Source: Yuukianura sp. NJ FZ-2021 (taxonomy: Eukaryota). From it: 64,000 nucleotides of DNA. The number at the start of each line of letters is the position of its first letter. The first letter of the stretch is position 1. The notes beneath the pieces are model-generated. The model saw only the letters and a program-made list of their open reading frames with translations. It was not told the origin of the DNA and made no database searches. Shown here piece by piece: positions 5,099 through 57,644 of this stretch. The DNA lies in the NCBI GenBank assembly GCA_046563655.1, contig CM102289.1:3100001-3164000 (forward strand), written 5' to 3'. The position numbers were made by a program, and so were the translations under genes.

Positions 5099-5369
5099 TT
5101 TTTTTTTTTTTTTTGATTCGTTTATTTATATTCTTTGATCCCCTTTGCGTTACATGTTATTAAGACCCCCACTAATGGTTTTACATCTTAATAACCTATT
5201 CCTTAATTTTATCTAATATTAAAGTTAAAATTACTTATAGTTATAAATTTAAAATTACACACGAAAATTCAGTTTGTTGACTATTCCTATTTAATTCCTA
5301 ATTATGATTAATTTTAGGCACTTCACTTACTTAACTTAAACTAGTACTTAACTTAACTTATAGCCTAAC

Positions 5370-8204
5370 TTAACGTAAACTTAATTCATGTGACTGCTTC
5401 TCTAGTAGTGCTTTCTTCAATTTTATTTTAAAACTTGAGTAGGTCCCAGCTTTCTTAATGGTATCATCTAAATTATTCCATAACATAAGTGACTTAGAGT
5501 GAAACGTAGAGATGCCATACTTTCCCTGACTCGTAACAACAAATTTACTCTTTGCTGATGATGTTGGGTATCTATGCATTTCTGTAATTGGTATGTAATA
5601 CGATTCCAAAGCTTGAATTTGCTTACCAGTTACCAACTTATACGTAAGACAGAGGACTTTGAACTCATACAAAAATTTCGGAAAAAGCCATTTTAGAGAG
5701 TCCGTTATCTCCTCTGAAATGGTTTCAAACTTTCTTTTACCAGTTACCAACCTTCCCATCCCTCTAATTACTCTCTCCACTTTCTTTTTATTTTTGATTG
5801 TTGTCTCTCCCCACAGAACTATCATGTATTGTAAAACAGAATATACAGCAGCTTCGACTATTACTTTCTTTGATTTCAAAGAGAAATATTCTTTCACACT
5901 AAAAATTTTGCTTAAAACTGCGAAACAGTTTTTTACCACATTGTCCACTTGTATGTTCCACTTAAAATCAGGCTCTAGGATTAATCCTAAGCACTTTATA
6001 GTTTCACTCACAGCAATTTCAATTTCACCAACTTTGATTACGAAACTTCCAAATCTTTCTCGTTGGATTTTTGACCCAAATACTAAGATTTTGGTCTTCT
6101 CTTTATTTAAAATCAAAACATTTGTTTGCAACCATTCAGAAATTCTTTCCATTTCGAAATTAATATTTTCGATAAGATTTTCCTTTTGCTCCCAATCTCC
6201 TACAAAGAGTAAATTGGTATCGTCTACAAAAATCTGAGGTTCAGCATGTTTTAATATTTTGACAAGGTCGTTAATATAAAAAGTGAAAAATATTGGTCCA
6301 AGAACACTTCCTTGTATAAGTCCAGTCAGGTTCTCATTAATCTTTGATCTCCTATTATTGATCTCAACAAATTGATTCCTTTCATTGAAATAATTTCGTA
6401 TCCAAAAATCAGATATCTGAAAGAATTTTTGTATTTTTTCCAAGAACTTTTCCCGATGAACTGTTGGGAATGCGTTTTTTAGATCAATACTGACCAAAAC
6501 GCATGCCTTTCCTTTGTCCATATATTTTTTAATTTTGTCTACTGTCATGATTAGAGCATGTTCAGTAGAGTGGTGTTTACGGCACCCAAATTGATTCTCT
6601 GTAAGTACTTTTTGCTTGTTAACGTGCTCCAGGACTTTATTAGCATATATTTTTTCCAATAAAATCAGAAGAAAGTGAGAAATTCCAATTGGTCGAAAAT
6701 CTTTAAAAGCTTTGGCGTCTTTAACTTTTGGTATAGGACAAATCCTTGTAGTTTTCAGTAATTTAGGAACTACGCCTGTTTCAAAGCTTGTATTGCAGAA
6801 ACTTGTTAGTGCATCCAAAAAACTAGGACAGTTGATCAGCACATTAATCATTCTTTTACTTATTTGCAATTCTTCCACTTGCGACTTTCTATTTCGCATT
6901 CTTTTCCACGCAAATTTAACTTCCTTCGTTGTCACCTCCTTGACAAAAAACAATTGACTGTCCTCTGGTGGTCTAACCGCTACTTTCGTAGACACAGTTA
7001 AATATGGATTTACGTTTTCAGGGAAAGCATTTTTTATGTAAAAGTCGTTAAGTTGATCCACATCGAAGTTGACTTCCTTGTTTAAGGCATGTCTTTGTTT
7101 TAATTGAAAATTGAATTCATTCTTTAGAACATTCCATATGTTGCTTTTTTCGATTTTGAGTTTTACTCTTTCGCAAACTTGGCTTTTTATCTTCATTTTA
7201 ACAAAGTTTTTATGTTCTCTTAACTGATTCTTCAGTGAAAGTACTTTAGTTGATCTGTAGTTTTTATACAATTCTCTGCCTTTGCATATTAATTCAAGAA
7301 TCTCATTGGTTGGTTTTGCAGCTTTAGAGCTTCTTCCCAATTTAATTCTCCTTTTTAATGGAGTCACTTGATCGAAAATGTTTGTCGTGTCTTTAATTAA
7401 AGCATTCAATACTTCATCAACATTGGTTAATTCAGTACCAAAGGTAGTTTGAGCAACAATTTCATTTAACTTCATCAAGTCTAAGTCTTTAAAATCTCTG
7501 TAGAGTTCGTACTCTTTACTTTTTTTTTCTGATCCAACTGTAAAAGAAACCTTCGAAAGGTTGTGATCAGAAATGCCATAATCACTAACCTTGACTTTAT
7601 AATCAGTAACAGAATTTGTGATAATTACGTCAAGAATTGCACTTTCTCTTGTTGGATGACTAACCAACTGTTTCAATTCCATTCGGTTAACCAGGTTAAC
7701 CAATTGTTTTGTTTGTGAGCAATCTTGCAATAAGTCACGATTCAAGTCACCAATAACCCAAAAAGTTTTGTTTGTCATTTTAAGTTGAAATAGAATTTCT
7801 TCTAAATTGTGCATGTCATTTTTGTTGTTCTTGTTCGGAATGTACACAGCACATACCAAAAAACTGTTCGTGAAGTTGATTTGAAAATTCATACATAAAA
7901 ACTCTATTGCAGACGGCTGCATGAAATTATTTTTGCTTAGTTCAAAGTCCCATGTTTTAAAACTATTTTTAAAAAGAATCCCTACTCCTCCTCCGGCACT
8001 ATCCCTATCTTTTCTTGAAAGTAAGTAACCCCTGGGAACTAGACATTGCGATTTCTTCCTTAACCATGTTTCTGTTGTGACAAGTATATCTATCTCTTCA
8101 GCATGTAAAATAGCCTCTACATGTTTCATTTTGTTATACATAGCCCTTACGTTCTTGTTTCCTATGTTAATATTCTTGATTCTGCTGTCTTTGCTATCAT
8201 GTAG
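5370..8204 (-). CDS. LINE ORF2: APE endonuclease + reverse transcriptase (first ATG at 8141, frame open to 8204)
   Basis: APE motifs NVRAM, TETWL, GDLN, LDVI and SDH. RT motifs FRPI, DLKNAF, QGSVLGP and FVDD. CR1/L2-like C-terminus LWNNL…FKIKLK. No stops or frameshifts. Confidence 0.95.
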   Translation of the reverse strand, partial: LHDSKDSRIKNINIGNKNVRAMYNKMKHVEAILHAEEIDILVTTETWLRKKSQCLVPRGYLLSRKDRDSAGGGVGILFKNSFKTWDFELSKNNFMQPSAIEFLCMNFQINFTNSFLVCAVYIPNKNNKNDMHNLEEILFQLKMTNKTFWVIGDLNRDLLQDCSQTKQLVNLVNRMELKQLVSHPTRESAILDVIITNSVTDYKVKVSDYGISDHNLSKVSFTVGSEKKSKEYELYRDFKDLDLMKLNEIVAQTTFGTELTNVDEVLNALIKDTTNIFDQVTPLKRRIKLGRSSKAAKPTNEILELICKGRELYKNYRSTKVLSLKNQLREHKNFVKMKIKSQVCERVKLKIEKSNIWNVLKNEFNFQLKQRHALNKEVNFDVDQLNDFYIKNAFPENVNPYLTVSTKVAVRPPEDSQLFFVKEVTTKEVKFAWKRMRNRKSQVEELQISKRMINVLINCPSFLDALTSFCNTSFETGVVPKLLKTTRICPIPKVKDAKAFKDFRPIGISHFLLILLEKIYANKVLEHVNKQKVLTENQFGCRKHHSTEHALIMTVDKIKKYMDKGKACVLVSIDLKNAFPTVHREKFLEKIQKFFQISDFWIRNYFNERNQFVEINNRRSKINENLTGLIQGSVLGPIFFTFYINDLVKILKHAEPQIFVDDTNLLFVGDWEQKENLIENINFEMERISEWLQTNVLILNKEKTKILVFGSKIQRERFGSFVIKVGEIEIAVSETIKCLGLILEPDFKWNIQVDNVVKNCFAVLSKIFSVKEYFSLKSKKVIVEAAVYSVLQYMIVLWGETTIKNKKKVERVIRGMGRLVTGKRKFETISEEITDSLKWLFPKFLYEFKVLCLTYKLVTGKQIQALESYYIPITEMHRYPTSSAKSKFVVTSQGKYGISTFHSKSLMLWNNLDDTIKKAGTYSSFKIKLKKALLEKQSHELSLR

Positions 8205-9086
8205 TCAGATTTCCATGACCTCGGATGACCTCCTAGCCCGTGCTACTGCCCCTGCTTGGAGATTTGATGCTGTCGCTGCTGCATAACCTCTCCTTTCCGT
8301 TGTAGACTCCGTTATTTCCCGTTCCAATTGAATCAATGCTCCATCAGTTGACATAGTAAAAGGAACTCCATTGATGATGACCTTATCTCCTGCTAATCTT
8401 GCATTTTTCCCGCTTGCTCTAGCCTTTGCTGCCTCTGCACGTAGAAATTTTCGTCTAGCCAAAGTGTTCGGTGGCAAATCTTCATTCAAGTAGATACTGC
8501 ATTTTTTTTGCTGTAGAATTGTTCTCTTCTGAAGTATTTTGACACGATCAGTTTCGGTGAAGAGTTTGAACTTAATTGGGCGATTTTTATCTCTCAATTT
8601 TTTTCCCAAACGAAAACACTGATCAATGTTTACCTCCTCCTCAATTTCAATGACTTCCCGGAAGAACTTTTGTAGAACAAGGTTCAATTCCAGTTCTGAT
8701 TCTTCATTTTCTTCTTTTAGCCCAATCACAATCAAATTAAGCTTTCTGGCTTGAATGTCAATCAGTTCCACACTTCTTTGTAATGCTGACACATTTTTCT
8801 CAGTAACTGATTCTTTAACTTCAATTGCTTTCACACGATCCTTCGTTTCACTTAGATCTTTGCTAAGTTTGTCCACAGTTTGTGTTAAGGTGGTGACCTG
8901 CTGCGTAATTCGATCAACTCCATCTTGAACTATTTGCGCGATACTGTTAAGTGTGAGATTTTGCACTGGATTGAAGTCCGGTACTTGTTGAGTATTTGCT
9001 CTTTTCAATTGAGCCGGTTGATCTTCGTCTTCATCTTCAGTGTCTCTTCCTCTCTTTGCCTTAGAACCTTTCTTATGAGCCGGCAT
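8205..9086 (-). CDS. LINE ORF1, coiled-coil + RRM-type nucleic-acid-binding protein (293 aa)
   Basis: A heptad-rich segment is followed by NLIVIGL…RLGK…RPI…IYLNEDL, as in CR1/L2/L1-type ORF1 proteins. It lies directly upstream of ORF2. Confidence 0.9.
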   Translation of the reverse strand: MPAHKKGSKAKRGRDTEDEDEDQPAQLKRANTQQVPDFNPVQNLTLNSIAQIVQDGVDRITQQVTTLTQTVDKLSKDLSETKDRVKAIEVKESVTEKNVSALQRSVELIDIQARKLNLIVIGLKEENEESELELNLVLQKFFREVIEIEEEVNIDQCFRLGKKLRDKNRPIKFKLFTETDRVKILQKRTILQQKKCSIYLNEDLPPNTLARRKFLRAEAAKARASGKNARLAGDKVIINGVPFTMSTDGALIQLEREITESTTERRGYAAATASNLQAGAVARARRSSEVMEI

Positions 9087-9112
9087 CTTAGTCTATATGA
9101 GTGACTGACAGT

Positions 9113-9147
9113 ACGTGTGCACGACTTGAAGGCTAATAGGAGACTGA
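9113..9147 (-). promoter_or_regulatory. LINE internal Pol II promoter: Inr (TCAGTC) + DPE (ACACGT at +28..+33)
   Basis: The minus strand reads T-CAGTCT at the element 5' end (A+1 = 9145). ACACGT at 9118-9113 is exactly +28 to +33 and fits the DPE range DSWYVY. Confidence 0.65.
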
Positions 9148-10690
9148 TTTGCGTTAACAACGTGCTTAGAAGCTTTCACTTTCTCCCGATAAAGAAAAAA
9201 TTTGAATGTTATCTTCAACAGAAAATTTTCACACGGATTCAGCCGAAAAACCTGACAAGCAAGTTTGATAAACAACAAATTTCGTTGGTAACGCTTCAGA
9301 CAGGACTTGTACACCCGAAATTAAAATTTTTCTGTATTTATGTTAACAATGTGCTTAGAAGCTTTCACTTTCTCCGGATAAAAAAAATTTGAATGTTATC
9401 TTCAACAGAAAATTTTCAGACGGATTCAGCCGAAAAACCTGACAAGCAAGTTTGATAAACAACAAATTTCGTTGGTAACGCTTCAGACAGGACTTGAACA
9501 CCCGAAATTAAAATTTTTCTGTATTTATGTTAACAACGTGCTTAGAAGCTTTCACTTTCTCCCGATAAAGAAAAAATTTGAATGTTATCTTCAACAGAAA
9601 ATTTTCACACGGATTCAGCCGAAAAACCTGACAAGCAAGTTTGATAAACAACAAATTTCGTTGGTAACGCTTCAGAAAGGACTTGAACACCCGAAATTAA
9701 ATTTTTCTGTATTTGCGTTAACAACGTGCTTAGAAGCTTTCACTTTCTCCCGATAAAGAAAAAATTTGAATGTTATCTTCAACAGAAAATTTTCACACGG
9801 ATTCAGCCGAAAAACCTGACAAGCAAGTTTGATAAACAACAAATTTCGTTGGTAACGCTTCAGAAAGGACTTGAACACCCGAAATTAAATTTTTCTGTAT
9901 TTGCGTTAACAACGTGCTTAGAAGCTTTCACTTTCTCCCGATAAAGAAAAAATTTGAATGTTATCTTCAACAGAAAATTTTCACACGGATTCAGCCGAAA
10001 AACCTGACAAGCAAGTTTGATAAACAACAAATTTCGTTGGTAACGCTTCAGATAGGACTTAAACACCCGAAATTTTTCTGAATTTGTGTTAACAACGTGC
10101 TTAGAAGCTTTCACTTTCTCCCGATAAAGAAAAAATTTGAATGTTATCTTCAACAGAAAATTTTCACACGGATTCAGCCGAAAAACCTGACAAGCAAGTT
10201 TGATAAACAACAAATTTCGTTGGTAACGCTTCAGAAAGGACTTGAACACCCGAAATTAAAATTGTTCTGTATTTGCGTTAACAACGTGCTTAGAAGCTTT
10301 CACTTTCTCCCGATAAAGAAAAAATTTGAATGTTATCTTCAACAGAAAATTTTCACACGGATTCAGCCGAAAAACCTGACAAGCAAGTTTGATAAACAAC
10401 AAATTTCGTTGGTAACGCTTCAGACAGGACTTGTACACCCGAAATTAAAATTTTTCTGTATTTATGTTAACAATGTGCTTAGAAGCTTTCACTTTCTCCG
10501 GATAAAAAAAAAATTTGAATGTTATCTTCAACAGAAAATTTTCAGACGGATTCAGCCGAAAAACCTGACAAGCAAGTTCGATAAAAAAAAAACAAATTTC
10601 GTTGGTAGCGCTTAAGAGAGGACTTGGACACCCGAATTTTTGTTGATAACGCTTCAGGCAGAACGTGAACACTCGAAATTCTAAATTATT
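9147..10690. repeat. 189-bp satellite array, right part (~8 monomers, last one degenerate)
   Basis: Same monomer as the left part. It decays from ~10580 into unique sequence by ~10690. Confidence 0.95.
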
Positions 10691-12695: not shown

Positions 12696-13927
12696 TCAGT
12701 TCCAATTTTCATAAGGTTCAGTGGAGTTCGACTCTCTGAAAAATCCAAGTTTGTTGGGGCATTCCCTTATTGTTACAGTTCGAAAGTTAACTGTGACATC
12801 GGTGATTACGACATGGTCTGCAACGGGTTTTCTCTCCAGCCAAAATTCAGCAGGAATTGGATTTTCTTCTGGCGTAAAGGCATTGGTGTCTAATCGAACT
12901 GCCTCTTCACACAGAATCGCTTCTGAGTCTACTGGTCTCATGTTGTCTTCTTTTGAACTCGACGCCTTACGTTTCCGTTTCAGTTTTTTCTGTTTTGGAA
13001 CCTTCATGTTTTCTTGTGACTCGTGCCCATCTACGACCATTTCAGACTTGTCGCTGCTTGGAAACAAAGAGGATGTCACATTACTCTTTGAAATCAAATT
13101 ACTCTATTTCTATAGAGAGTTGAAGTCATGTGACTCCATAAGGTAATTCGATTTGGTCTTATTTTTTGTTCAAAAAAATATTGCAATTCCTTACGTAAGT
13201 TCCGAATTGGCTCTTGAATATTCGTTTTTATTAGAAGCAGGAAGTTCTGTTTGACCACTACCGTCATCATCTTCATCAGGGCATTCTTGTGGTTTTTCTT
13301 TTTTCACACTCGGCTGCTACAGTTAAATTAAAAAAAAACATAAGATTTTTTAACCTTAGGTTAAAGTTAATCTAACATAGTCTATAGTTTAGCGCTAATT
13401 CCCGTTACCTTTTTGTTTTTGGGTTTCGGCCCTCTTTTTGCTCCAGCAGGTTTCGGAATACTCGGTTTCAATTCCTGCTCGAAAGCTTGAATCAATCGTT
13501 CATCTAAAATGTTTTCTTGTGGTTCCCAAGTATTATACCTGATCATACAAAAATTCAAATTTTCAACGTCAATTTGAATCATTTGCTATTTTTCTTCTGA
13601 ATTTCAGTTTCCTAACTCACGCTGACGTCCATCCCTTCCATTTCACAAAGTACTCGATTTTGCCCTAGAGCGAAAAATTCTATTTAAAGAAGTTTCTACT
13701 AATTGCATTTTGTTTATTAAATTATGCATATCTTAGTTAATTAGATCAAGCCATGCAAATCTTTCCACCTTTTTTGTTTTCTTTTTATCCAAGATTCGTT
13801 CTGCTGCGAAAACGCTTTTTCCCAGTTGCGTCAGTTCCATCCGATCTTCTGGATTCGGCTAAAAAATGGTAATACACATAACGTTTAAGAAATTTGTGAA
13901 AAACTGATTTCTTTTTAAACTCACCAT
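12696..13927 (-). CDS. Pc: Polycomb-type chromobox protein (Pc/CBX family, multi-exon)
   Basis: The chromodomain VFAAERIL…[12 protein letters not shown]…[16 protein letters not shown] is split over exons, followed by KRGPKPK and a C-terminal Pc-box ([18 protein letters not shown]…GFF). The start is either ATG 13840 or an ATG-only first coding exon at 13927 followed by GTGAGT that splices in frame ([10 protein letters not shown]). Confidence 0.88.
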
Positions 13928-37287: not shown

Positions 37288-41427
<4,140 letters not shown>

Positions 41428-43298: not shown

Positions 43299-46200
43299 TC
43301 AGATGAATATGTAGACAGTGAAAGTGACAAGGAAACTCAATTGCTGTCGAATTGGAAGTACGCGTTCTCCTGATGAGATATCTTCCTGTGAGAGCACTAT
43401 AAAAAAAATATAAATTTATTATATTTTAAATATGTTAATTAAATTAAATTTATTGTAATTCATTAAATTAGTTGTACCTCCTCCGTTACTACCCGAATTG
43501 GCTGACTGAATAACGTTTTCTCCAAAGTCTCTTCTGGAATTCAATCTCACGGTATTGTTTCTGGCCTTGTTGGAACTGATGCTGCCAGTGCCGAGTTGAA
43601 GCCTTCGACTACCGCCTGAGGAAACAACAACCAAAGTGACTTGTGTACATAGTATGTTAAGTTTCAAATACATATTAGAACCACACTAATTGAGTTTTCA
43701 TGCTAAATTAGATTGGTTAGTGAATACTGTATAAAGTGAATTAAAAGAACAGAGTGGCAATCTGTCCTAATTTAGACAATGAAGATGGACATTTTAGTTG
43801 AAAAATGTAGTCACCTCTGTCCAAGTAGCTTTGATTGCTAGCGGATGAAGGCAGCATGGTTGTTTTAGTGGCCTGGACTGAGGGCGTAATTGTAATTGCT
43901 AGAAGACAAACAGTACATTTTACAGTTGATGCATTGAGTGAAGGCGGTTTCAAAATTAAGCTAACAAGCCTAACCTATGTGAAAGTGGTTGACTTTCACT
44001 CTCAGCTTAATGGAAGTGGACCCACTTGATTTGTGGGACAGAACAGAACGCAAATATTTGCGTTGGAAAGCATAATGTCTTTCCAATGAAATTAAATGAA
44101 CGGGAAAAAAAACAAGAGATAAATTTTATCCAAAAAGTTCGATAGAAAGCAAATTAGAGGAACTGACTTTTAGTTACAATGTTTGATTTTTTTTAAAAAT
44201 TAACGTGGTTGATTTGTAATATGGTTTAACACGTACGGTAGAGTTTGATGAGGCCATCCGTTTCTCCCAAACTGTTTTTGGATAAACAGATATAAGATCC
44301 ATAGTCTTCTGGAGTTACACCACGAATCGTCAACCTCATGGTGACGCGATACACGTTGTCCAGGAGAATCGGTTCATACTTCTCCCCTGTTCAGTGTTTT
44401 GAAAAGTAAGAAAATTTGTGATTCCATTTCACTCTCGCTCATACGCCCAAATATCTTTTCAAAATAGGTTTAGAAATTGAGAATTTTGATAAAAAAAAAA
44501 AGTTTTGTGGTAATATTTTAATCACATGTACCGCACTAACATTTTCAATTCTTGGAAAAATACTCAATTTTATATAAAAAAATTGTTATTTAAACATCTT
44601 GGTCTCTATAACTGTCACTTTGATTTTATGTTTGAAATTTTGATTGACTGACGTTTTGTGAACTCGAGTTTTTGAAAATATAATTCTATTTTATTTTTTT
44701 TAAATTCTATCACGCAAGAAAAGTTTGTACCTACCTTCTACGGCCAAATCCTTCGAACCTATAAAAAAATGAAACAAAAGAGAGGAAATTGGGTTAGACA
44801 GGTTTAAGAAGAGCTTAGTTTAGAACAGAGAGATTTGTTTTGTCTGAGAGTGATCCAATTCATTTGCACTGGTACTCAATGGTACACTTTCACTTTTTTC
44901 GTTTTCACAAAGTACAGGATATCGCTTCTTCTATTATTGATAGAAATATACACCTATTGCTCACTCATGTACCGCCACTCAATTCGACTCAACTTCAATT
45001 CCGTTTATGAGTGCCAACTGATTTTCAAATTCATAGTTTCAAACGTCAAATAACTTCTATTCCGACTTGAAATTTAAATTTTAAAAATTGACTACCTGGA
45101 AACACTTTTCTGAAATTACAAAACAGAACACATTGCTCTTTCAAGATTACGTATCTGTACTTGGCTTTATGTACTTTGGCTTTGTGTTGAACGTAGCGGT
45201 AAAAACTTTAGGTGAATTCCGTGCAAACGAAAATTGAAAATAAAAGACAATAGTTTTCGTAAAAATGTGCCTTCGGATATTCCTTTTCCAAAAATGATGC
45301 ATTGACTTTCTCTTTCTTGTCTTTCCAAGCTCTTCATAACCTCTTTTACCTTAACATATTTCTTTTGGCTCTTCATTCACTTTCTCCTCCTTTTTCTTAC
45401 CATTGCAGCCCTCAAACTTTTGATTTAAACTGGTGATAACCTTAACCTATTCAATCCTCTTCCTGTTTTTATCCTTCTTTTGTGCCTACAAAGCCCAAGT
45501 ACGCAGTTTTTCAACGTCCTCGTTTTTCTAACTTTCTTAGCCTATAGTAAAGCAGTTTCCTATGAGCTTGACATTTGGCACATGGATGATTTTTATGAGA
45601 CGACTTGTTCGGAGAGAAGGTGGAAAGAGATTTTTCTTATAATAATACTGGTAGAGCAGTTCATGGGAAATACTCACCGTGTACAATAGTTTCTCCATTG
45701 TCTCTTCTCCAGTAATTAATGGATTTTGGGAATGCTTCAGAATGACATTCTAGAACAACATCTTGACCCAATGCTGCTCCTACGAGTTGGTGAGCAATCG
45801 TTATCATTGGTGCAACTAGGAAAATACAAGCAATGAGAAAACTGTAAAAAAAACTTTTTTGAAGTTATGAGTAGTGAAATGTGTTTGATATGTTGAAAAA
45901 AATTAAAAATTTTTAAAATATCAAAAAATCATCATTTGAAAAGTTACAGTGGACGATGAGGCTAATTCGTCTTGATACAGTGGGTGGAACAAAGTTTGAC
46001 GCAATGCATAAGTAGACACCTATGTTAAATAAATTAAAGTTATTGGTTTTAATTAATATAGTAGAATATTTTAAGAATCTAAAATCCATTAGGTTTAGGT
46101 TATGTTTGTCTCACCCATGTGAAGCCGATTGACTTTAGTGAAATTGAGATATGGACCTTCTTTGAAATCGACTTGAAATGAAGAAATGGAAAAGAAAAAG

Positions 46201-48752
46201 TTAATTAGATTTGGATGAAGCTAATTTTTTTGAGAGTTTGTTATGATATTGAGCCATACCCAACTGATCATCAATTGAGATTTTGCCCTTGTCCTCCCTA
46301 CGCCAAGTGATTTTTGGCGGGGGGAATCCGGTGGCTGCACATTGAAGCGTCACATTGGCTCCCTCCCTCACAACCATGTCAGGACTCGTGGGATGGTCAG
46401 CTATATCGGGTGGCACTGAAGTGAAAGTAACACAAAAATCAAATTCAATTTCCCGCTTCCACAACGATTTCCCGGAGAGCTGGACTGTCTCTCTGCATTT
46501 CAGTTTTGATGGCTCCCTGCCACTGACTTTGACTCCACCGGCCAACTCTGGGACATTCTCGAACGCTTATGGTCGGCCAATTGCGGACGAAAATACATCT
46601 ATTGCAAGTACTAAATAGTTCTGGAGGGCAAGGAAAATCACAAGCTAATCAAACATAGTATGGAGATAGTTCTATTGCAACTGTTCAAGGGTTAGCGTGC
46701 ATAAAGCACTTGTCCATTGACGACTGTTCGTCATTGGGCGTGCAAAAGCGTCCAGTTACCGCGAAGACGACGGACAAGATCATTTTCTTTTCTCAAATGT
46801 AATAACAGCCTCATTCAAATTCAGATTTAAACTAAAAAAAAATTTCAATTGTGGAATAGACAACCTTATTGTAAACTCAATACAGAAATCAAATTCTTTC
46901 TATTGTGAACTTTTTTGAAAGAGACTGAAAACATCCCCAAAATTTTGATGGATAAAATGATACTGTAGACTTTACCTACAACTTGGAGGTATCCATTCTG
47001 GCTCATCATTGGCTAGAATCCAAAAAGTAAGAAAAGTTATTCGAAGGTGTTCAAAATTTTTCCAAAATTTTCATTCCGAAATCATGTCTTACGTCTGTAT
47101 TTATTTGACACATGTACCACCCACTAATAATCAAAAGTTTATGTTTGATTAGTACTTTTCTGGCAACAAAAGAACTTTGGAATTTGAGTGATAAACTTTT
47201 GTAGTTATTTTTGTTACCGATCTGATTCTCGTACGGTCTTGATTAGTAAGTTCCAAGTCCAAGAGTCCGTATGGGATAAACTTATTCTGTGACTTCGTGT
47301 AATAACATGGTTGTGGATAGTGAGAATAGTTTGAGTATCTACTCGTACCCACGCGACCTATAAAATTTAAATTACACCGCTAAGTTTTCACCCTACGTAT
47401 TTTAACTACCTTAGTTGTTTGATTTCCCAATCGGATTGGAATTTTACGGTGTTGCTAAAACTTAAATCTATTCAGGATCTTCTGCGCTCCTAAAAACTTT
47501 GGTGAAAAGTGCGATGTTAGATTAGTACTTTTCTTCGTTTTCCCGGAAGTATTTAAACATGCAGATTAGTTCAGCAGTACCAAAAAAGTGGTAGGTAAAT
47601 CCAGTTTGGAATGCCATAAATTTCAATTTGCACAAAATTCTAGACAAGATTAGTTCTAATTTAGCAGCTTCGTTAATTTCCCACTTTTAAAAAAAGTTTT
47701 CCAAAAACTTACAAAGTTTTGTCTTCAGGGAATTAAAACAAGATTTCATGCATCATAAACCAAAGCGGGAAGAACAAAAAGTGGAGAAGGTTGAACTTTT
47801 TTTGTGTGATGTAAATTTTGGTGCAACAACTACAAAATACAAGTTTTCATTAATGCGGGAGAAAAATGGATTTAAAAAGTTTGATCGAAGTAACTTTTTT
47901 GGTGAAAGTATTTTGACTGTTTCTAATTGTGAAATTGCATTTCTAGATTTCTCTGGAGTCCTGACTCTGGCAGAAATCCTTTTCGAGGAGTAAAATATGT
48001 TCTAAATTCATTTGACTTTGAAGGGACGAGTAATGGCTGTCATAGAAATCCGCTGACACGGACATACTTTTTCCTCCCATGTAACCTTAACATGTTACTC
48101 CTGACGCAGTTAATAGCATTATAATTCACTACTGAATCCAACAGTCTACGTTTGAAAGTAGTTCATTTATTCATTTTCTCCCGCACTCACCCTTCACTTT
48201 CACCTTCAGTCGATACGATTTAATCCGGATTTTCTACTTTCCAACAACCCCTTCCATCCTACATCTAAACTCACCCTCCCCTTTTCTATATCCTAGCGTT
48301 ACAATGGATTGTGACTCTAACTGATATAAGCTCGTTTAAACGTGGTACTTAAGCTAAGCCATTCTATTCTGCTAAGCTTAAATTTTACTTGTAATTCACT
48401 ATACAAAGTGACATTGTCACAGGACTGACACAATACATGCTTATTTCGCGCCAATGCTCGCAAATTTTTCATCATCCGTTCAAAGCACCTTCCACGTTAT
48501 TATTTGTTTAATCAAAAATTTCTTTTGTTGTGGAGAATTCATAGAATTATAGTTGTTAGAATTGGATTTAGCTATTCTTTTGTAGTTAAAATGTAGTTTC
48601 ACTACAGTAACCGTATCCCACCCTGTTTAAAAGATAAATTTTTGCGCGAATTACCTTGTAGGAACCAAGATTATCGACAGTACATGTAATGGCAGCCTCA
48701 CGACCGAGAGGAACAGTTACATTGTTGACAGGACCCACAAACCGGGGTGAAG
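43299..48752 (-). CDS. Dpr-interacting protein (DIP) / IgLON-lachesin-type three-Ig adhesion protein; 5' exons not located
   Basis: In-phase exons: PRFVGPVNNVTVPLGREAAITC…YK|VAWVRVDTQTILTI…DR|GWYMCQINTD|PMMSQ…|VPPDI…VVREGANVTLQC…|YLCIASN…|LECHSEAFPKSINYW…|YICLSKNSLGETDG. It ends in a short hydrophobic GPI-like tail with TGA at 43301-43299. Confidence 0.9.
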
Positions 48753-51603
48753 CTGCAAAAAAATACAATACATACGACGTAAGATGACGTTAAGAAACTA
48801 ATTCTTGGCTAAAACAATACAGAGGTTCCGTTTTTTTAAACACTTTGGTTTAAAAACTAGACTTCAAAAAAAGACATCCTAACGAACTAAAATACGAAAT
48901 ATTGCGGGATAGTTATGATCTTGACGACAAACCCTCACTTTTTTTCAAACGCAGCAGATTACATAAAAGTGTTGTTCAAAAATACAATGGGCGATTAATA
49001 AATTTGAAATGGTTAACTCACAAAACGGCGGGAGTTGTAACGCAAATTACGAAATCAATATCAAAACTGGAGTACTAATTACAGTAATTCCAAAAACAAA
49101 ATTCGATTACAGGCAAAAATACGAAGATTTTATAGATAAATTGTTTGGCTAAACGTAAGTCGCTGATGTTTAACTACTAATTTGTTCAGGTACTAATACT
49201 GAACTTTTGTTTTCCAAAATGCTGAGGCGTTACTGAGTAGTTACGTTTTTCTTATTCGAGAAAAAAAATGTTCTCCCAAATGATTTCCGGCAGTGCTGGG
49301 AGTATATTTTCTTAAGAACTGTAGCGTGAGACTCGGCCGTTCTCATTTTGGATTCATCCTGAACAGAGTAGTAAAAGATGGGATTAAAATTTGTAGGAAT
49401 TCGCCGTTTTACATGTATTTCCCATTATTCCAGAAGGAAAAAACTAAACATTTAGCGGAACATTTGGGGCATCATCCATGATATCCTGTGTAACTCATAC
49501 AATTTTCTAAACATGCCCTTCTGACTACTAGTTACTGTGTGGCCCCATGTTCCAGAATTGTTGATGTTGATGTGCATGTGTAAGTCAATCTTGTAGAGTT
49601 TTCCTTCAAAATCCTAAACGGACTTTTGACATGTGAAGAAAATGAGGGAAAACCTCAAAAACAGAATCTGAAAGGATCTTAACATGGAGAAAGTTAATCT
49701 GGAAAATGACTCTGAATCACGGCATGTAATTCCAATGGGACTTTACATTTCTAAACGTTTTCAACATTAACTTTACCAAAATTTCTGTCTGACAAACCAA
49801 AAAGAAATTCAAACAAAATCAAAAAATTTCGAAAGTAGAGTTTCTGATGATCCATTTTGGTTCATATTTTGTCATTTTAGTGATGACTGAAAGTTTTCTT
49901 TCAACTGGATCAAACCATGCCAAATGGATTACTTTCCCCCAGCCCAGATTCTCTCTCCATTTTTATCCCTACACGTTTATGACGGCTCAACTTCCAAGCT
50001 TATGTTCATAATTCCGAGAAAGACTGACAGTGTAACATATGCTGGCCAATGGACTCACAGTTGCTTCTCCTTTTCGTGTACAGTTACATATCAATTTCTC
50101 TAATGTGTCATGAGAGTGTCTTTGGGGAAAGGAGGACTTGATTTAATTAATTTCCTATTAAATCTCTTCTTTGACTCACTCCTTCGCCCTTGATTTCTCT
50201 TTAATTAACTTTAAGCATATCGGCATTTCCATTAAGTTTTGCTCTGTTTTAACTCTCGTGAGAATAATTCTCATCAGTAACAAACGGAAATTCGTACAGT
50301 AAAAAATTTATAACAAAAATTTGTACCAATCGCCAGTATTCAACTGTTTGGTTTGTATTTTGCCGAAGGAGAAATCCAACAAATTAAAACAAAAATTTTA
50401 ACAACGAACTGAAACTTATAGAAAATATTTTCACAATAACTCGCCAAACTTCATTTCTCTAACTACTTTTTCTTAAATACCGATTCGTTTACAATAGAAA
50501 AACACCCGAAACTGTATAATGCCAGGATGAAGAAACTTCATCATGTTTGCTATTCTTTTTGCATAGGGTGCTGGTACTGTTGTGCTTACTTTATTGCGTG
50601 CAGTAGTTGCAGCAGATGCACGCAAAAAGTTAAAACTAGAGCTTGTAGTAAAGAGAAAGTTGGAGGGAGAAAAGTGATTTAGTGTGTAAATAATAGATGA
50701 ACTGGTGCGAGGTAATAAAAATGGTTATGGAAACATTTGGGAATGTAAATCCATTTGAGATGAAAGCGAACTGTGGTCAAGCCTTGTCCATCTCCTACAT
50801 TTCCCATTCATTATGTACGAGAGAAGCTTTCTCTTCACCCAATTCATTGTAAAAGCAAATGCTTCTGGAACCTCTACTGCTCTACAACCCTAGTTAAAAC
50901 TTTGTCAATTTAACTTAAACCAAAACAATGCTAAATTTTTCTCTTTTGATTATGGCCTGTTGTTTTTAACTAAAAACAAAGAACTTGTGAAATACTAGTT
51001 CTGGAAGATTGAGATTCAACTAGCGTCGGAGTCAAAAGGTGACAGTCACATTTGAATTAGAGACACAGCAGAACAATTATCTAGCTCCAGACTAATCGAA
51101 AGTATAGAAAGGTGGATAGAAAGGGAGAATAAAGACAAGGGAAGCTTGTCAACAGTGACTGATTCGTGGCAAACACGCATCAGGGAGAAAGTCTTCAATG
51201 CTAGTCACACTACAGTGTGAAACGGAACGGGGAACAATTCGTCACTTTGAGTCCATTTTACATTTTGTGTTTCCTTTCAAACGAGATTGGACTGCTAGTG
51301 TGTCTCCCCGTGTGATCCGAAAGTCTTTTGTGTAAAAGACAATTAATGGCAGTAGGTGCGTCAGGGAGGGAGATTTCAAAATAGAAATTTTGAAAATACT
51401 TAAGGGTGCAAGCAAAGTAATGGAGTGAGAGGGTGAAAGTTGTTTTGACTGCCCCTAATGAGTCACGGGAACCTTTCAACTTCTAAGTATTTCTTATGAC
51501 CTTCATAAAAGACTGAAACCGGAAGTGATTGCATCTAAAGTGTTATAAGCCTTCTTAACCATTCTTGATGCACACGTAGCCTAAGACCGCTTTTGGTTAG
51601 GTT

Positions 51604-52705
51604 TGTGAGACTGCAAAATAGCGTCACGTTGTTAAGAAAGAGAAATGCGCGCCCTCTATTGGTACTTTAGGGACGACTCTTCCACTTTTCATCTTTTCAC
51701 TACCAAGTCAAAAGCTAGGAAAAAACACAAACTCAACCACAACTAATTAATCGAATTTTAACCAAAGTTAGGGACTTCAGATCATCTCAAACTTAGTACT
51801 AATCAACTCCCGGAAGAAAGTTGATTAGTACTAAGCACATTCATCTCAGCTGCTGCTCATCTTCATTGTTTTAAATTAGGAAAGGAGTGTATGGATGAGG
51901 CTGCCTTTTACATGGAAAAGGGTAGCAGGAGCTCATCTTCCATACACTCGGGACCCAGTCACGGGACGGATGGATGCTGCCCGACGTTACAGGTATTGCA
52001 GAGGTGGCTGGCTTCCAGCCTGCTGCAGGGTGTTTGGTTGCTCGGGGTGATCCGGAGAGCCACTTAAAGTTTCACGTTAAAGTCTTTTTCGTCGTTAAAG
52101 TTCGTTTCGTTCACCGTAGAGTACCGTTTCGTTTATCGTTTCATTTTCGTTTCAATTTACCGTTCAATTAACTGGTTTCATTTAGAGGTTTTCTCATTTG
52201 GTTTTCTCATTGGTTTTTCACATTAACTTAACGATCTGAGCGCGGTAAAGCGGCGCGGCGCGGTTTTCTCTTTTTGTTGTTTGGAATTGAACTCACAACA
52301 TCTCAGTCTCATGTCACGGGGTTGGTGACCCCTAAAATTGCTGTGTACCGCGGCATTTGAGTTATTGGTAGTTAGTACTGGTTGGTTCGTGTGGAGTTGG
52401 TTTGGTGCGGCACTGGGGTGCGGGATTCTGGATTTTCGGGCTGGAGTACTCGAGATCAACAACAGGCTGGAGTAGCTGATCAACTGAGGCCAAATTTCTT
52501 TCTACTACTACCAGAGGTAAAAAGGGGGTCAAGTCGTGACCTTGAGTGACCGGTCGGCCCTTGGAAGGGAAGAAACCCCCTTTCAAGGTGAAACTGCTAA
52601 GGGCCCGGGAAAAACGTAAGGATAGGAACGGAAAGGTTGGGTTTACAAATTAGAGCGGAAGAGAAGTCCCTTAATTTAACCACTACGTAAATCCCTTATC
52701 TTACA
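51604..52705 (+). repeat. 5' LTR (1102 bp)
   Basis: Direct repeat of 54864-55967 with TG…CA termini. Confidence 0.93.
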
Positions 52706-52708
52706 ACA

Positions 52709-52724
52709 TGGGGGCTCAGCGGGA
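52709..52724 (+). promoter_or_regulatory. Primer-binding site, tRNA-Pro-like
   Basis: TGGGGGCTCAGCGGGA begins 3 nt after the 5' LTR. Its first 9 nt match the canonical tRNA-Pro PBS TGGGGGCTC. Confidence 0.75.
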
Positions 52725-52848
52725 AACCCTTAAGCGGTAGATCGGTCAGCAACAAGAGATGTCAGAGTTCAAATCCAAACGATGATTTGTCCACTACGCG
52801 CGTAAATTCAAATTAAAGTCAAAGTTAAGGTCAAAGTAAATACAAAAG

Positions 52849-54588
52849 ATGGAAAAGAGCGGGCGCAGGCGTAAAGTGCAGGGAAATGGTTGTGCTGAGG
52901 CAGTGACCCGGACAAAAATGGCTGACAAAGTACCGCAAGTGGATCGGAAGATTTTGAATCGGAGAGATTGCCCTCTACCGATGTTTGATGGAAGCTACTA
53001 CGTTCAGCCGTACGAGTATTTGCTGGAACTGGAACGCTACATGCAGGTTTGGGGAATCTGTGAAGAGGACATGATGGAGCAAGTCTTGCCAGTAGTATTC
53101 TCAGGAATGGCTGCCATTTGGTATCAATTCATCTACAAGATCCTGGACAGTTGGAGTACGTTTCGGACGGAGTTCCGGCGGAAGTTTGAACCTCCAAATT
53201 ACCAACGTGAGCTGAAGAGAGCACTGATGGATCGCTACCAAGGCAGGGAAGAAAAGTTGACCGATTATGTGCTGACAATGTGCTCACTATTCGACAAACT
53301 GGAAGTTGCACCTAGTGAAGAACAGAAGGTCATGCAGGTCATTGAACTGATGAACCCAGAATCGAGAGACAGACTCAGATGGATTGGCCAAAGCTTTGCA
53401 GACGCACGGGAGCTGTACAAAGCAGCCGAAGAAGTCGAAAGAAGAATCGCTCTGGACAACATGTACCACGAGCCAACAACAGACAATGTCATTGATCCCG
53501 GACTCTCCTACCATGGGAGTAACCAATCCACAGACGCTGATTCTGGATGGACTGGCAGGCATGGACGGAAGTCTCGAGGTCAGAGGGAGAGGTCAAGTTT
53601 TGGCGGGGCTTCTCAAAGGTTTTCAAGGCAGTGGGGGAATGGTATTGACCCAAGGGAGCTGGCAGTTCCTGTGGACTCGTACGTCGACGATTCGTCTTCG
53701 GTATCGTTTGCTCCTATGTCTTCGGAAAATCAGAGTGGGATCTACAAGGGAATCACGAGTGAGCGCCCTACTGTAGGAAATGATTGGAAGGGCGGTGATG
53801 AGCCTCGTACTCATGCGCAGACCCAGGAGTCTGGCACGACGGTGGTTCTCGCTTCACACTCTTCGACGCTTGAAACTGGAATGGACATGGAGCAAGAATC
53901 TTTGGAAGATTTTGGGTTTGAATACTGTGGACTAATTGATGCCTTTGAGAATTGCACTAGCCTCTCATCGAACCAAGACGAAGTTGCTTCGGAAACTCTG
54001 ATTCGAGAGACGGAAGTTTCATGTTCGTTGGATCCTCCAGAAGAAAGCCATTGTCAGTTTGGAACGGCGGCATTGGGCGACAACACTTCTGAAGTTTGGG
54101 AAGAGATTACTGGGACTTTTGGCTGCAATTCCGAAGAATGCATCGCCACAGAAATTGACCATTGGGAAGACTGGGCAGAAGTGACTGTCGGCAGTACCGA
54201 GGCTATCACAGATTCCGAAGTAGTTGTCATGTCACTGTCCAGCGATGAACCGTGTCGCGAGAAAGTAGTGGACAAAAGCACGCAACAACAGCAGCGCTCA
54301 AATTTAAAACAATTAAATGACAAACCCGATTATGACTCTAATGCTCGTCTTTTCTCTGAGTTCCAGAAAACTCAGTTGGACATGGACAGGAGGAAGCGAG
54401 TAAAGCTGGATTTGACTACGACACAGGCCCGTTTCCCCAATGATGGATTCGTGCAATCTAAAAGAGATGGGACTTGGTCTTTTCGAGGAAAGCCGGACTG
54501 GAGATGGAAAGATGGCCGACAGAAGCGAAAAATGTTGTCTGGGCGAGCGATGGCGGATGGAGAAGACCCTGGAGGCTTCTGTCTGTAA
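52849..54588 (+). CDS. Retrotransposon Gag (Ty3/gypsy, Arc-like capsid) with long acidic C-terminal extension
   Basis: Capsid pattern LPMFDG…YL…LE…FSGMAAIWY…SWSTFRTEFRRKF…QGREEKLTDY. No CCHC knuckle, protease, RT or integrase motif was seen. Confidence 0.85.
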   Translation: MEKSGRRRKVQGNGCAEAVTRTKMADKVPQVDRKILNRRDCPLPMFDGSYYVQPYEYLLELERYMQVWGICEEDMMEQVLPVVFSGMAAIWYQFIYKILDSWSTFRTEFRRKFEPPNYQRELKRALMDRYQGREEKLTDYVLTMCSLFDKLEVAPSEEQKVMQVIELMNPESRDRLRWIGQSFADARELYKAAEEVERRIALDNMYHEPTTDNVIDPGLSYHGSNQSTDADSGWTGRHGRKSRGQRERSSFGGASQRFSRQWGNGIDPRELAVPVDSYVDDSSSVSFAPMSSENQSGIYKGITSERPTVGNDWKGGDEPRTHAQTQESGTTVVLASHSSTLETGMDMEQESLEDFGFEYCGLIDAFENCTSLSSNQDEVASETLIRETEVSCSLDPPEESHCQFGTAALGDNTSEVWEEITGTFGCNSEECIATEIDHWEDWAEVTVGSTEAITDSEVVVMSLSSDEPCREKVVDKSTQQQQRSNLKQLNDKPDYDSNARLFSEFQKTQLDMDRRKRVKLDLTTTQARFPNDGFVQSKRDGTWSFRGKPDWRWKDGRQKRKMLSGRAMADGEDPGGFCL

Positions 54589-54863
54589 TTTTTAATTGGA
54601 TTGGACTTTGGATTGCCTACTACTGGAATCCCTCCCTCGTAAATTTTTCGAATTTCGTCCTAAAAATGAATTTTTATCCCCTTAGTTAATGTAAAAATTA
54701 ATTTTTCTTTTGATTTTTGAAAATGTTAAACTTCAAGTTAATTCTAGAACCTAAGAATTCTTGTAAATATTTTGAAATGGAAATGGGAAGTCGGGTCAGA
54801 GAGAAAATTGAAAACTGAATAAGAAGTGTACTGACCGCTTCGTGGCTTTGTGAGGGGGGATGT

Positions 54864-55967
54864 TGTGAGACTGCAAAATAGCGTCACGTTGTTAAGAAAG
54901 AGAAATGCGCGCCCTCTATTGGTACTTTAGGGACGACTCTTCCACTTTTCATCTTTTCACTACCAAGTCAAAAGCTAGGAAAAAACACAAACTCAACCAC
55001 AACTAATTAATCGAATTTTAACCAAAGTTAGGGACTTCAGATCATCTCAAACTTAGTACTAATCAACTCCCGGAAGAAAGTTGATTAGTACTAAGCACAT
55101 TCATCTCAGCTGCTGCTCATCTTCATTGTTTTAAATTAGGAAAGGAGTGTATGGTTGAGAGTGCCTTTACATGGAAAAAGGTAGCAGAGGCTCCTCTTCC
55201 ATACACTCGGGACCCAGCCACGGGACGGATGGATGCTGCCCGACGTTACAGGTATTGGCAGGGCGTTGCTGGCTTCCAGCATACTGCCGGGTGTTTGGTT
55301 GCTCGGGGTGATCCGGAGAGCCACTTAAAGTTTTCGCGTTAAAGTCTTTTTCGTCGTTAAAGTTCGTTTCGTTTACCGTAAAGTACCGTTTCGTTTACCG
55401 TTTGATTTTCGTTTCATTTTACCGTTCAATTAACTGGTTTCATTTAGAGGTTTTCTCATTTGGTTTTCTCATTGGTTTTTCACATTAACTTAACGATCTG
55501 AGCGCGGTAAAGCGGCGCGGCGCGGTTTTCTCTTTTTGTTGTTTGGAATTGAACTCACAACATCTCAGTCTCATGTCACGGGGTTGGTGACCCCTAAAAT
55601 TGCTGTGTACCGCGGCATTTGAGTTATTGGTAGTTAGTACTGGTTGGTTCGTGTGGAGTTGGTTTGGTGCGGCACTGGGGTGCGGGATTCTGGATTTTCG
55701 GGCTGGAGTACTCGAGATCAACAACAGGCTGGAGTAGCTGATCAACTGAGGCCAAATTTCTTTCTACTACTACCAGAGGTAAAAAGGGGGTCAAGTCGTG
55801 ACCTTGAGTGACCGGTCGGCCCTTGGAAGGGAAGAAACCCCCTTTCAAGGTGAAACTGCTAAGGGCCCGGGAAAAACGTAAGGATAGGAACGGAAAGGTT
55901 GGGTTTACAAATTAGAGCGGAAGAGAAGTCCCTTAATTTAACCACTACGTAAATCCCTTATCTTACA
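54864..55967 (+). repeat. 3' LTR (1104 bp)
   Basis: Direct repeat of 51604-52705, preceded by the polypurine tract. Confidence 0.93.
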
Positions 55968-56952
55968 GGTTAAACGAGGACGCCTAGCCTAATACGTTAG
56001 GTTTTCTAGCCAACGGAGTCAGTTTTCTTCAAAGTTTTTTTTACGCTTAGGTTTTCAGCTACTCGAGTTTCCCGCAGCGCAATGGAATGAAACGATCGAC
56101 TTTCTCCCCGCTTTCCAAGGGAGCCCAATTTATTTTATAGTTCTCACCCCCTCAAATTCCACGACTTGTGCATTGGATTTGTCCATAAAATGGATTCGTT
56201 CTTTTATTGCCCCAGTGCAGGCCGCTACAAATTGTTTCCGGCTTCTACTGTAACATTCAAACAAAACTCTAACTTCACCTGACTTCCCGCTCTGTCATGG
56301 ACTGTTGTGCGTGAAGGTACCAGGACACCATAACCTCTCTGACATTTGAAATCCAATGTTTAAACAACATGAAAAACATACGTTTCAAAAGTTGCACAAG
56401 GGAATCCTACTTTTTAGTATCCGTATTATTGGAAACTAGGCGGTAAAATATGAATTTCAAGAGTCCCATTACTGTCTTTTTGTTTTTTGGCTTGGTTTTA
56501 GTCTGAGAATGTTTTTGGCACAAAAGTTGAAGTTGAGCGGCAGATTCAAAAGGCACAAGACAAAAAGTCAAGAGAAAGCAAGGGGGAGAAAGTTGTCTCT
56601 TGTTTCAAGATTTATTTATTTATGGAAATCACTCGGATGTCACTTTATAACATGCGGAGGAGAGATTTTATGGGATTCATGTGTCACAAAATATTGTCAC
56701 ATAAAAGTTTTAGTAAAGGCTCGGCGTCACTCCAAACCCATCCCGAACATGAAATACGCTTTTCAAAATACTCCATAATAAAAAAGAGGTTGAGAGGCAC
56801 AAAATTTTCAAAGTTGAGCATTTAAGTTTTAACTTATCGCTATTCATTTTAACACGATGAATTTAAATTAAAAGAAGAGGAAGTTGTGAGCATAGGGTAA
56901 GTGCACATGATGGTGTAGACGTAGGGAGACGTCTGTTAACCTAGTTAAATAG

Positions 56953-57644
56953 CGTAGCAGGTAATTTGGTCGAAATAATTTGGTCGCAAGTAATAAGGTC
57001 GCAGGTAATAAGGTCGCAAGTAATAAGGTCGCAAAGTAAAAAGATCGCAAGTGAAATGATCGCAATGTAAAAAGATCGCAATATGAAAAGGTCGAAAAGT
57101 AAATTGGTCGGAAGTAAAATGGTCGCAACAACAAATGGTCGAAACGTAAAAAGGTCGAAAAAAAGAGATGATATTTTTTAGTAATGATTTTTTATATTAA
57201 TCTTTTGTCGTAGATTCCGACTCTGAAACCCGTTTTTGACGGCATTACCTACTTTTATATAAGATCGATTAATTAATTTTGGCATTAGCAATGTGAATTT
57301 GACATATGGCATCAGAATTTCTATTGTGTAATGATTGGGTAACATAAATTGTGCCCTATGTCACCGCGCCGAAGGCGCACGTTAGGTTATTTGAATATAA
57401 CAACGATAATAATAGGTTTTCAGAAATTATCAAGTTTTTCGATCTTTTTATTTTTCGACCATTTGCTGTTGCGACCATTTTACTTCCGACCAATTTACTT
57501 TTCGACCTTTTCATATTGCGATCTTTTTACATTGCGATCATTTCACTTGCGATCTTTTTACTTTGCGACCTTATTACTTGCGACCTTATTACCTGCGACC
57601 TTGTTACTTGCGACCAAATTATTTCGACCATATTACATGGAATC
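56953..57644. mobile_element. Foldback/MULE-like element with GGTCGCAA-repeat arms
   Basis: ~200-bp inverted arms of ~15-bp repeats and a 9-bp TSD GTTAAATAG (56944-56952, 57645-57653). Internal palindrome GCGCCGAAGGCGC at 57366-57378. Confidence 0.85.

Follow-up and report, generated by a model that had tools for sequence, protein, structure and literature searches.

The window analysed here, 64,000 nucleotides of contig CM102289.1 (positions 3,100,001 to 3,164,000 of the forward strand; assembly GCA_046563655.1) from Yuukianura sp. NJ FZ-2021, contains at 51604-55967 a 4,364-bp long terminal repeat (LTR) element whose single gene encodes a Gag protein. We assign a probability of about 0.68 to the reading that it belongs to a Ty3/gypsy family that is currently mobile but non-autonomous, its one functional protein being an Arc-like capsid, and that depends on an autonomous element of the same genome, here called the helper. 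The family structure, the independent insertions, the selection on the capsid, the cis sequences shared with the helper and one mixed insertion are observed directly. That this is a mobile family using this particular helper is highly probable, and the gag-only Gag likely serves to encapsidate the RNA of the element itself.

An earlier sequence-only reading had described a complete element with LTR termini, a target-site duplication (TSD), a primer-binding site (PBS) and a polypurine tract (PPT), and a 2.16-kb interior with one open 579-amino acid frame. All of these were found again with the boundaries as given (interior 2,158 bp; Table 1). The LTRs begin with TG and end with CA and, as also stated, are largely identical (98%), but their 19 substitutions and four gap columns all fall within positions 292-552. 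They therefore represent one swapped tract, and we rejected LTR divergence as an age clock. LTR pairs often differed in tracts in the elements examined, and neither a canonical TATA nor an AATAAA was found in the LTRs examined. The U3 of the gag-only LTR also holds a 44-nt inverted repeat (51792-51835 and 55052-55095), to which Rfam gave two weak, sub-threshold microRNA matches that we judged to be chance. With TG...CA LTRs, PBS, PPT, TSD and a gypsy-type capsid the element has the features of Ty3/gypsy. Because pol is absent from it and is found in the order protease (PR), reverse transcriptase (RT), RNase H (RH) and integrase (IN) in the helper, we file it as a non-autonomous derivative.

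A search of the same genome returned six loci with this capsid (89-100% identity), all without pol. Five have open reading frames (ORFs) of 579-584 amino acids, at four insertion sites with TSDs: GGTT in the window, ATAT on C5, AAGT on C4, and AAGT around an array on C7 that holds two gag-only interiors; the sixth, on C1, is broken. Two solo LTRs have the TSDs ATGT and CCGT. Gag-only copies that are 85-92% identical have the same tail. At the window site, contigs from 4/4 DNA runs (two samples, two studies) joined position 51598 directly to 55967, and in runs X3 and X4 the empty allele was present at flank depth. The window insertion is therefore recent and unfixed, and it arrived in gag-only form. 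The earlier proposals of a gag-only family, and of retrotransposition in this form, are thus supported, with multiple copies, and the alternative that the element is a unique internal-deletion copy fails. Among 20 more distant gag matches, 14 were opened and none had the gag-only design; nine of the 14 had RT, RNase H and IN nearby, and the others were of partial or unsettled structure. One gag-only copy carries an insertion of about 530 bp with terminal inverted repeats in its 3' untranslated region (C4:2001014-2001546).

By the dN/dS check proposed with the earlier reading, the capsid is under purifying selection. Among the five intact ORFs, omega (Nei-Gojobori) was 0.09-0.24 over the capsid in all 10 pairwise comparisons, which are not independent of one another (p from 2.5e-3 to 4e-13). 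The tail, at 0.42-0.61, is itself constrained. All four coding indels keep the frame (3, 3, 3 and 12 nt), compared with 9/58 multiples of three outside the ORF; a fifth gap, of 1 nt, lies at the stop codon.

The protein matched Retrotrans_gag (PF03732, E 7.7e-8) and, weakly, an Arc capsid profile in Pfam. Neither Pfam nor motif inspection revealed a CCHC zinc knuckle in its 579 residues, so the description of a gypsy capsid without a knuckle stands; across all three forward frames of the element, Pfam likewise found no PR, RT, RH or IN domain. AlphaFold, with a 114-row alignment, predicted a two-lobed helical capsid at residues ~41-200 with pLDDT 95-98. The comparison with dArc1 and Ty3 capsids suggested earlier gave the Arc/Ty3 fold, with Arc and dArc as the best matches: both a six-sequence profile search and Foldseek ranked Arc, dArc1 and dArc2 at the top (PDB 6s7x, 6s7y, 6tap, 6taq, 7r23 and 6gse), with sequence-profile E values of 5e-19 to 1e-10, Foldseek E values of 8e-7 to 2e-4 and 20-25% identity. 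With VIA-align, PEG10, dArc and Arc were tied at Z 11-13, and Ty1 p22 and Drt2 were also among the fold matches. The best matches are Metaviridae-type capsids, and "Arc-like" here denotes the type of capsid that this gypsy lineage has and does not imply domestication of the gene.

The tail carries a net charge of -31 over residues 331-480 and +8 over 481-579, and was modelled with low confidence from an alignment that is shallow there, with one helix at 501-515. Word-based searches, in which candidates were limited to 318-1,014 amino acids, found no homologue of the whole protein or of the tail. None of 150 capsid relatives shared the tail, and the Atlas gave no usable match for residues 340-579; we do not take these blank searches as proof of novelty. 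A by-eye resemblance of part of the tail to a degenerate protease active site was unsupported. Against pol plus ORF3 of three autonomous elements, residues 340-579 scored no better than shuffles in 9/9 tests.

The tail is where another origin for the family has to be weighed, namely that it arose by ordinary deletion from an autonomous element that carried the same gag and is absent from the assembly, and that the low omega was earned in that parent and passed on by recombination. Such a parent would account for the pol-linker sequence in the tail (described below), for a weak likeness of residues 232-275 to the end of the protease in a metagenomic relative (5/1,000 shuffles; the best of 11 tests), and for a higher dS in the capsid than in the tail. 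The segment before the linker block scored against the autonomous elements in one of two shuffle tests. RT-deleted gypsy copies with near-identical LTRs also occur in this genome: C4:6093227-6099096 and C1:6945033-6950889, from another gypsy family, have LTRs 99.7-100% identical, an intact gag and no RT match, and look like ordinary mobile deletion forms. However, all six capsid loci are pol-less, and the only pol-bearing relative is 43% identical in the capsid. The tail is shared and kept in frame, with its omega of 0.42-0.61, by copies that are only 85-92% identical, and residues 430-579 have no match in pol or ORF3 of the three autonomous elements. We therefore consider this origin improbable. 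The earlier reading had also named a tail aligning to out-of-frame pol as an outcome that would undo it; no such alignment was found, and the linker match is in frame.

The autonomous partner that the earlier reading had proposed to look for was found, with the same LTR ends and PBS. The likely helper is present in three copies, at C10:791252-800650 and C5:1592443-1601813 (each ~9.4 kb) and embedded in the C7 array (C7:4780268-4788254). It encodes a Gag with a CCHC motif, an open pol (PR/RT/RNase H/IN) after a GGGAAAC -1 slippery site, and a 466-amino acid ORF3. Its capsid is 43-44% identical to that of the gag-only family; the best of 147 aligned library matches reached 34% over the whole domain. 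A capsid tree of 52 rows, built by a quick method, left the relation between the two unsettled. The helper and gag-only elements have in common the LTR termini, the U5 end (77-81% identity), the PBS and the TSD pattern ANNT; all nine TSDs read across these elements end in T, and seven begin with A. The sister and helper PBSs complement intron-containing tRNA-Pro genes of the host at 17-18 of 18 nt, and the window PBS, one base short, fits tRNA-Pro(TGG) at 17/18, in line with the tRNA-Pro-like PBS noted before. The intron-containing genes were named from their anticodon loops, since the bacterial mode of ARAGORN misnamed them.

A helper-type LTR at C5:574599-575954 is followed directly by about 41 nt that would pair with mature tRNA-Pro over its 3' half, the CCA included, which we take as a trace of tRNA-Pro primer use. 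Upstream of this LTR lies a truncated helper 3' end alone, beside an inverted gag fragment, and a similar tRNA copy adjoins another LTR-like end at C3:5595497. The helper ORF3 (C5:1598779-1600176; Pro/Lys-rich, no Pfam match) overlaps the last ~380 open pol codons. ORFs of the same layout, of 391 and 409 amino acids, occur in the metagenomic elements L127 and L128, and six other gypsy elements (L104, L106, L109, L110, L112 and L114) have a third ORF of 600-710 amino acids with a CCHC-like motif directly behind pol.

The gag-only ORF contains one piece of pol. The statement that no pol remnant was recognisable holds for PR, RT, RH and IN, but not for about 46 codons of the tail (53730-53868) that correspond in frame, with sharp ends and 88-91% nucleotide identity, to the PR-RT linker of the helper. 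The core pattern of this block occurs at exactly eight places in the genome, five in gag-only copies and three in helper copies. A pattern scan of a metagenome returned two autonomous relatives (L127 and L128) with the block at ~82%, compared with an average of 67-68% for their pol, and no gag-only relative. The conservation extends to four-fold degenerate sites: 16/18 are identical between gag-only and helper blocks (7/21 in the capsid), and 12/15 and 13/13 between the helper and the two relatives (16/49 and 7/47 in RT). Among gag-only copies one of 24 such sites varies in the block and 19 of 56 in the capsid. Four nested helices, P1-P4, chosen by eye in 10 related sequences, pair in 74/81, 81/81, 60/60 and 50/50 cells. 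P1-P3 show changes on both sides of the stem, and the outer helix coincides with the block ends.

Conservation of synonymous sites and helices, also in the two metagenomic relatives, points to an RNA signal, and we regard the 131-nt block as a candidate for one. A role in packaging or in recruitment of Pol is slightly favoured. Foamy viruses carry signals of this type in pol; a literature search turned up no RNA signal described for this linker in gypsy elements.

A second shared sequence lies in the LTR. In gag-only LTRs, positions 385-504 exist in at least four versions of unrelated sequence, and a stem-bulge-stem hairpin of the same shape stands at this position in 12/16 LTRs (3-5 of 200 shuffles). 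The two window LTRs carry two alleles known from helper LTRs. In the gag-only LTRs of C5, C7 (solo) and C10 the module is of the type seen in the helper-like LTR at C1:292566-293995, which is a solo LTR of a helper subfamily, 87% identical at the ends. Swaps of the module start at a single fixed point in all LTR types, and this left edge is probably the U3/R border, i.e., the start of R. Transfer between gag-only and helper elements may have gone either way.

The two families are physically joined in one 15.6-kb insertion (C7:4777005-4792628) flanked by a single AAGT TSD. Its order is gag-only LTR, gag-only interior, gag-only LTR, helper interior, helper LTR, gag-only interior and gag-only LTR. 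Each inner LTR matches the interior that precedes it, and both switches fall within ~35 nt, at the U5 end/PBS. Such an array might form if plus-strand strong-stop ends annealed to the PBS of another cDNA within one particle, by strand transfer as outlined in the accessible text of PMC6894440; section 4 of PMC1950507 gives flanking TSDs as a mark of reverse-transcription heterodimers. The alternative is DNA-circle recombination or an assembly error.

A broader form of this alternative accepts the family as described, but gives the block another role (RNA export, control of splicing or translation, or the peptide itself) and ascribes the shared LTR pieces and the array to gene conversion or DNA-circle recombination after insertion. 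The block is indeed in the same frame in both elements, with its peptide 67-76% identical, a one-LTR helper circle recombining at the U5/PBS would preserve the TSD, and LTR pairs do often differ in tracts. However, conservation at synonymous sites of the block equals or exceeds that of the peptide, every LTR type has its module swaps starting from the same fixed point, and the array switches exactly at the site of strand-transfer annealing. The tRNA-Pro copy behind the LTR at C5:574599 indicates, in addition, that aberrant cDNA ends do integrate in this genome. We think this combination quite unlikely.

The best reading of these sequences is that the gag-only element would be a capsid-supplying satellite co-packaged with the helper. 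Its LTR would give one RNA starting near LTR position 385. The gag-only Gag would build, or join, particles that also take in helper Gag-Pol, and the block kept from the pol linker would let the zinc-knuckle Gag or the Pol of the helper recognise gag-only RNA. Priming would be by tRNA-Pro, copying by helper RT and insertion at ANNT sites by helper integrase. Co-packaging would account for the exchange of LTR modules as well as for the mixed insertion. A more specific version is possible but tentative: a partnership like that of a satellite virus, in which an old lineage has its own knuckle-less Arc-like capsid, draws the enzymes of a distantly related helper into it through the structured pol-linker RNA signal, and tracks helper subfamilies by repeated takeover of the R hairpin.

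Several results pull the other way. The capsids are only 43-44% identical and the gag-only Gag lacks a zinc knuckle; at that identity mosaic lattices are uncertain. The dS of the capsid (~0.27) is about twice that of the tail (~0.12), which a donor outside the assembly could produce as well. Helix P4 is invariant; the folding energies of the block and the LTR module are not better than those of shuffles (z -0.66 to +0.73), and in 4/5 gag-only copies the minimum-energy fold differs from P1-P4. The hairpin search, run with strict criteria, did not pick up the LTRs of C7 type or that of C1. The array is known from one assembly, and 22 substitutions separate the LTRs at its two ends.

The missing knuckle also bears on a different function for the protein. 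Helper Gag alone might package the RNA, with the gag-only capsid kept, not as a shell, but as an interfering or decoy Gag that binds the lattices of the helper and limits or biases packaging, on the model of Ty1 p22 or DRT2. The 150-residue acidic stretch fits this as well, the block is the helper's own and so would be readable by helper Gag, and capsid-derived restriction factors are described in the available text of PMC4599808 and PMC10951436, with Ty1 p22 and Drt2 among our fold matches. However, p22 is Gag's C-terminal half, whereas both lobes are whole here and about equally conserved relative to the helper (31/75 and 38/90). Moreover, selection is seen between dispersed mobile copies and would therefore act through the element's own spread. 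A decoy function is accordingly less likely than that of a capsid, and we hold it to be doubtful, though less so than the two alternatives above.

The element lies about 2.9 kb upstream of the first immunoglobulin (Ig) exon of, and antisense to, a set of DIP-like exons on the minus strand (~48650-48740, 47217-47357, 47100-47125, 46219-46410, 45700-45800 and 44229-44390), which identify the host as an animal. Its position upstream and antisense agrees with the sequence-only reading; placement in a 5' intron is unproven because the DIP signal-peptide exon was not located in a search up to 94 kb. The Arc-like fold and the DIP neighbours might suggest an Arc-like gene that the host has domesticated and that is tied to the neuronal DIP gene, but the full LTRs, the several mobile copies and the site empty in 4/4 runs leave this with next to no probability, and at this locus the empty allele refutes it. 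As the insertion is unfixed and copies lie elsewhere, no link to DIP is implied, and the neighbourhood looks incidental.

Elsewhere in the window there is an element resembling a miniature inverted-repeat transposable element at 56958-57639 (205-nt arms 97% complementary, 15-16-nt repeats, high copy depth in DNA runs). An element resembling a long interspersed nuclear element lies at 5370-9092 on the minus strand (endonuclease and RT in a 944-amino acid frame, coiled-coil ORF1), within a tandem-repeat region at 1325-10615. Further exons, at 12699-13103 (-) and 38091-38474 (+), show a CBX C-terminal motif and a FERM central domain.

Table 1. Features of the gag-only element, in window coordinates
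Feature	Position	Strand	Remarks
5' TSD	51600..51603	+	GGTT; empty-site joint in 4/4 runs
5' LTR	51604..52705	+	1,102 bp; TGTGAG...CTTACA; ends identical to those of helper
LTR positions 292-552	51895..52155	+	site of every 5'/3' LTR difference
Swappable LTR module, positions 385-504	51988..52107	+	helper-type here (same allele as in the C10 and C5 helper copies)
Stem-bulge-stem hairpin	51997-52027	+	within swappable module
U5 end	52554..52705	+	77-81% identity to helper LTR end
PBS for tRNA-Pro	52709..52726	+	preceded by ACA spacer
Single 579-amino acid ORF	52849..54588	+	short basic N-terminus, capsid, disordered tail; no zinc knuckle
Capsid, residues 41-222	52969..53514	+	two helical lobes, Arc/dArc-like; omega 0.09-0.24
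131-nt block	53732..53862	+	common with helper PR-RT linker, in frame; candidate structured RNA signal, helices P1-P4
Disordered tail	53866..54585	+	acidic, then basic; no homologue found
PPT	54852..54860	+	GAGGGGGGA
3' LTR	54864..55967	+	1,104 bp; second helper-type hairpin-module allele (as in helper LTR of C7 array and LTR at C5:574599)
3' TSD	55968..55971	+	GGTT

Gag-only elements are already known, and the questions they raise are why they keep gag and which features they must have in common with a helper. Here parasite and helper occur in one genome, and comparing them gives a naturally made map of cis signals for an animal gypsy lineage whose capsid is closest to Arc: because the two have diverged (43% in the capsid), the shared LTR ends, primer site, LTR hairpin module and pol-linker block stand out. 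The system also allows a direct test of whether a pol-less Gag acts as shell, co-assembler or inhibitor. If the satellite partnership proved true, it would map an RNA that recruits Pol or directs packaging to the inside of a gypsy pol gene, and would present a living intermediate between gag-pol elements and pol-less capsid genes such as Arc. Our literature search found no gag-only family of arthropods for which a helper has been identified, although Repbase and supplementary files, which lay outside it, may hold one; nor did it place the lineage in a named clade.

The closest counterparts are the TR-GAG elements of plants (PMC4350172 and PMC13570524), which, in the sections of PMC4350172 available to us, likewise have LTRs, PBS, PPT and TSD, one gag ORF without pol, and several copies with differing TSDs. 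The present family shares the different TSDs and a single gag ORF without polyprotein domains, only a non-catalytic linker piece remaining. It differs from TR-GAG as that text describes it (PMC4350172) in its animal rather than plant host, its length (4,364 bp versus <4 kb) and its 4-bp rather than 5-bp TSD. The same text reports that no helper was found for TR-GAG1, whereas here a helper is identified, selection on gag measured and the shared RNA modules mapped. By analogy the element appears to work like TR-GAG and, among animals, like the pol-less MaLRs, but we do not file it as a member of TR-GAG. The mammalian ERVL-MaLR elements (PMC11359688, as far as its accessible text goes) are animal LTR elements without pol or env that have a gag-related ORF and spread within cells; tandem arrays are covered in the accessible part of PMC7215508. 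The gag of ERVL-MaLR is related to that of ERV-L retroviruses, and its ORF function is given there as unknown (PMC11359688), whereas the present family is Ty3/gypsy, polymorphic for insertion and has an intact, selected capsid.

The mixed array resembles the template-switch insertions of Triticeae, in which interiors share inner LTRs under one TSD, but compared with those set out in the available text of PMC1950507 it has three interiors from two families (capsid identity 43%), switches at U5/PBS rather than R, and has outer LTRs that differ by 2%. Ty1 p22 and DRT2 are, like the gag-only Gag, capsid-derived proteins without Pol beside an active element; in the accessible parts of PMC4599808 and PMC10951436, p22 is the C-terminal half of the same Gag, whereas the gag-only Gag has both lobes and its gene is mobile.

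Arc genes are fixed host genes. Arc, dArc1 and dArc2 share the two-lobed capsid with the gag-only element, but in place of a fixed locus without LTRs we find LTRs, a TSD, multiple copies, an empty allele and a long acidic-basic tail without a match, i.e., a mobile element.

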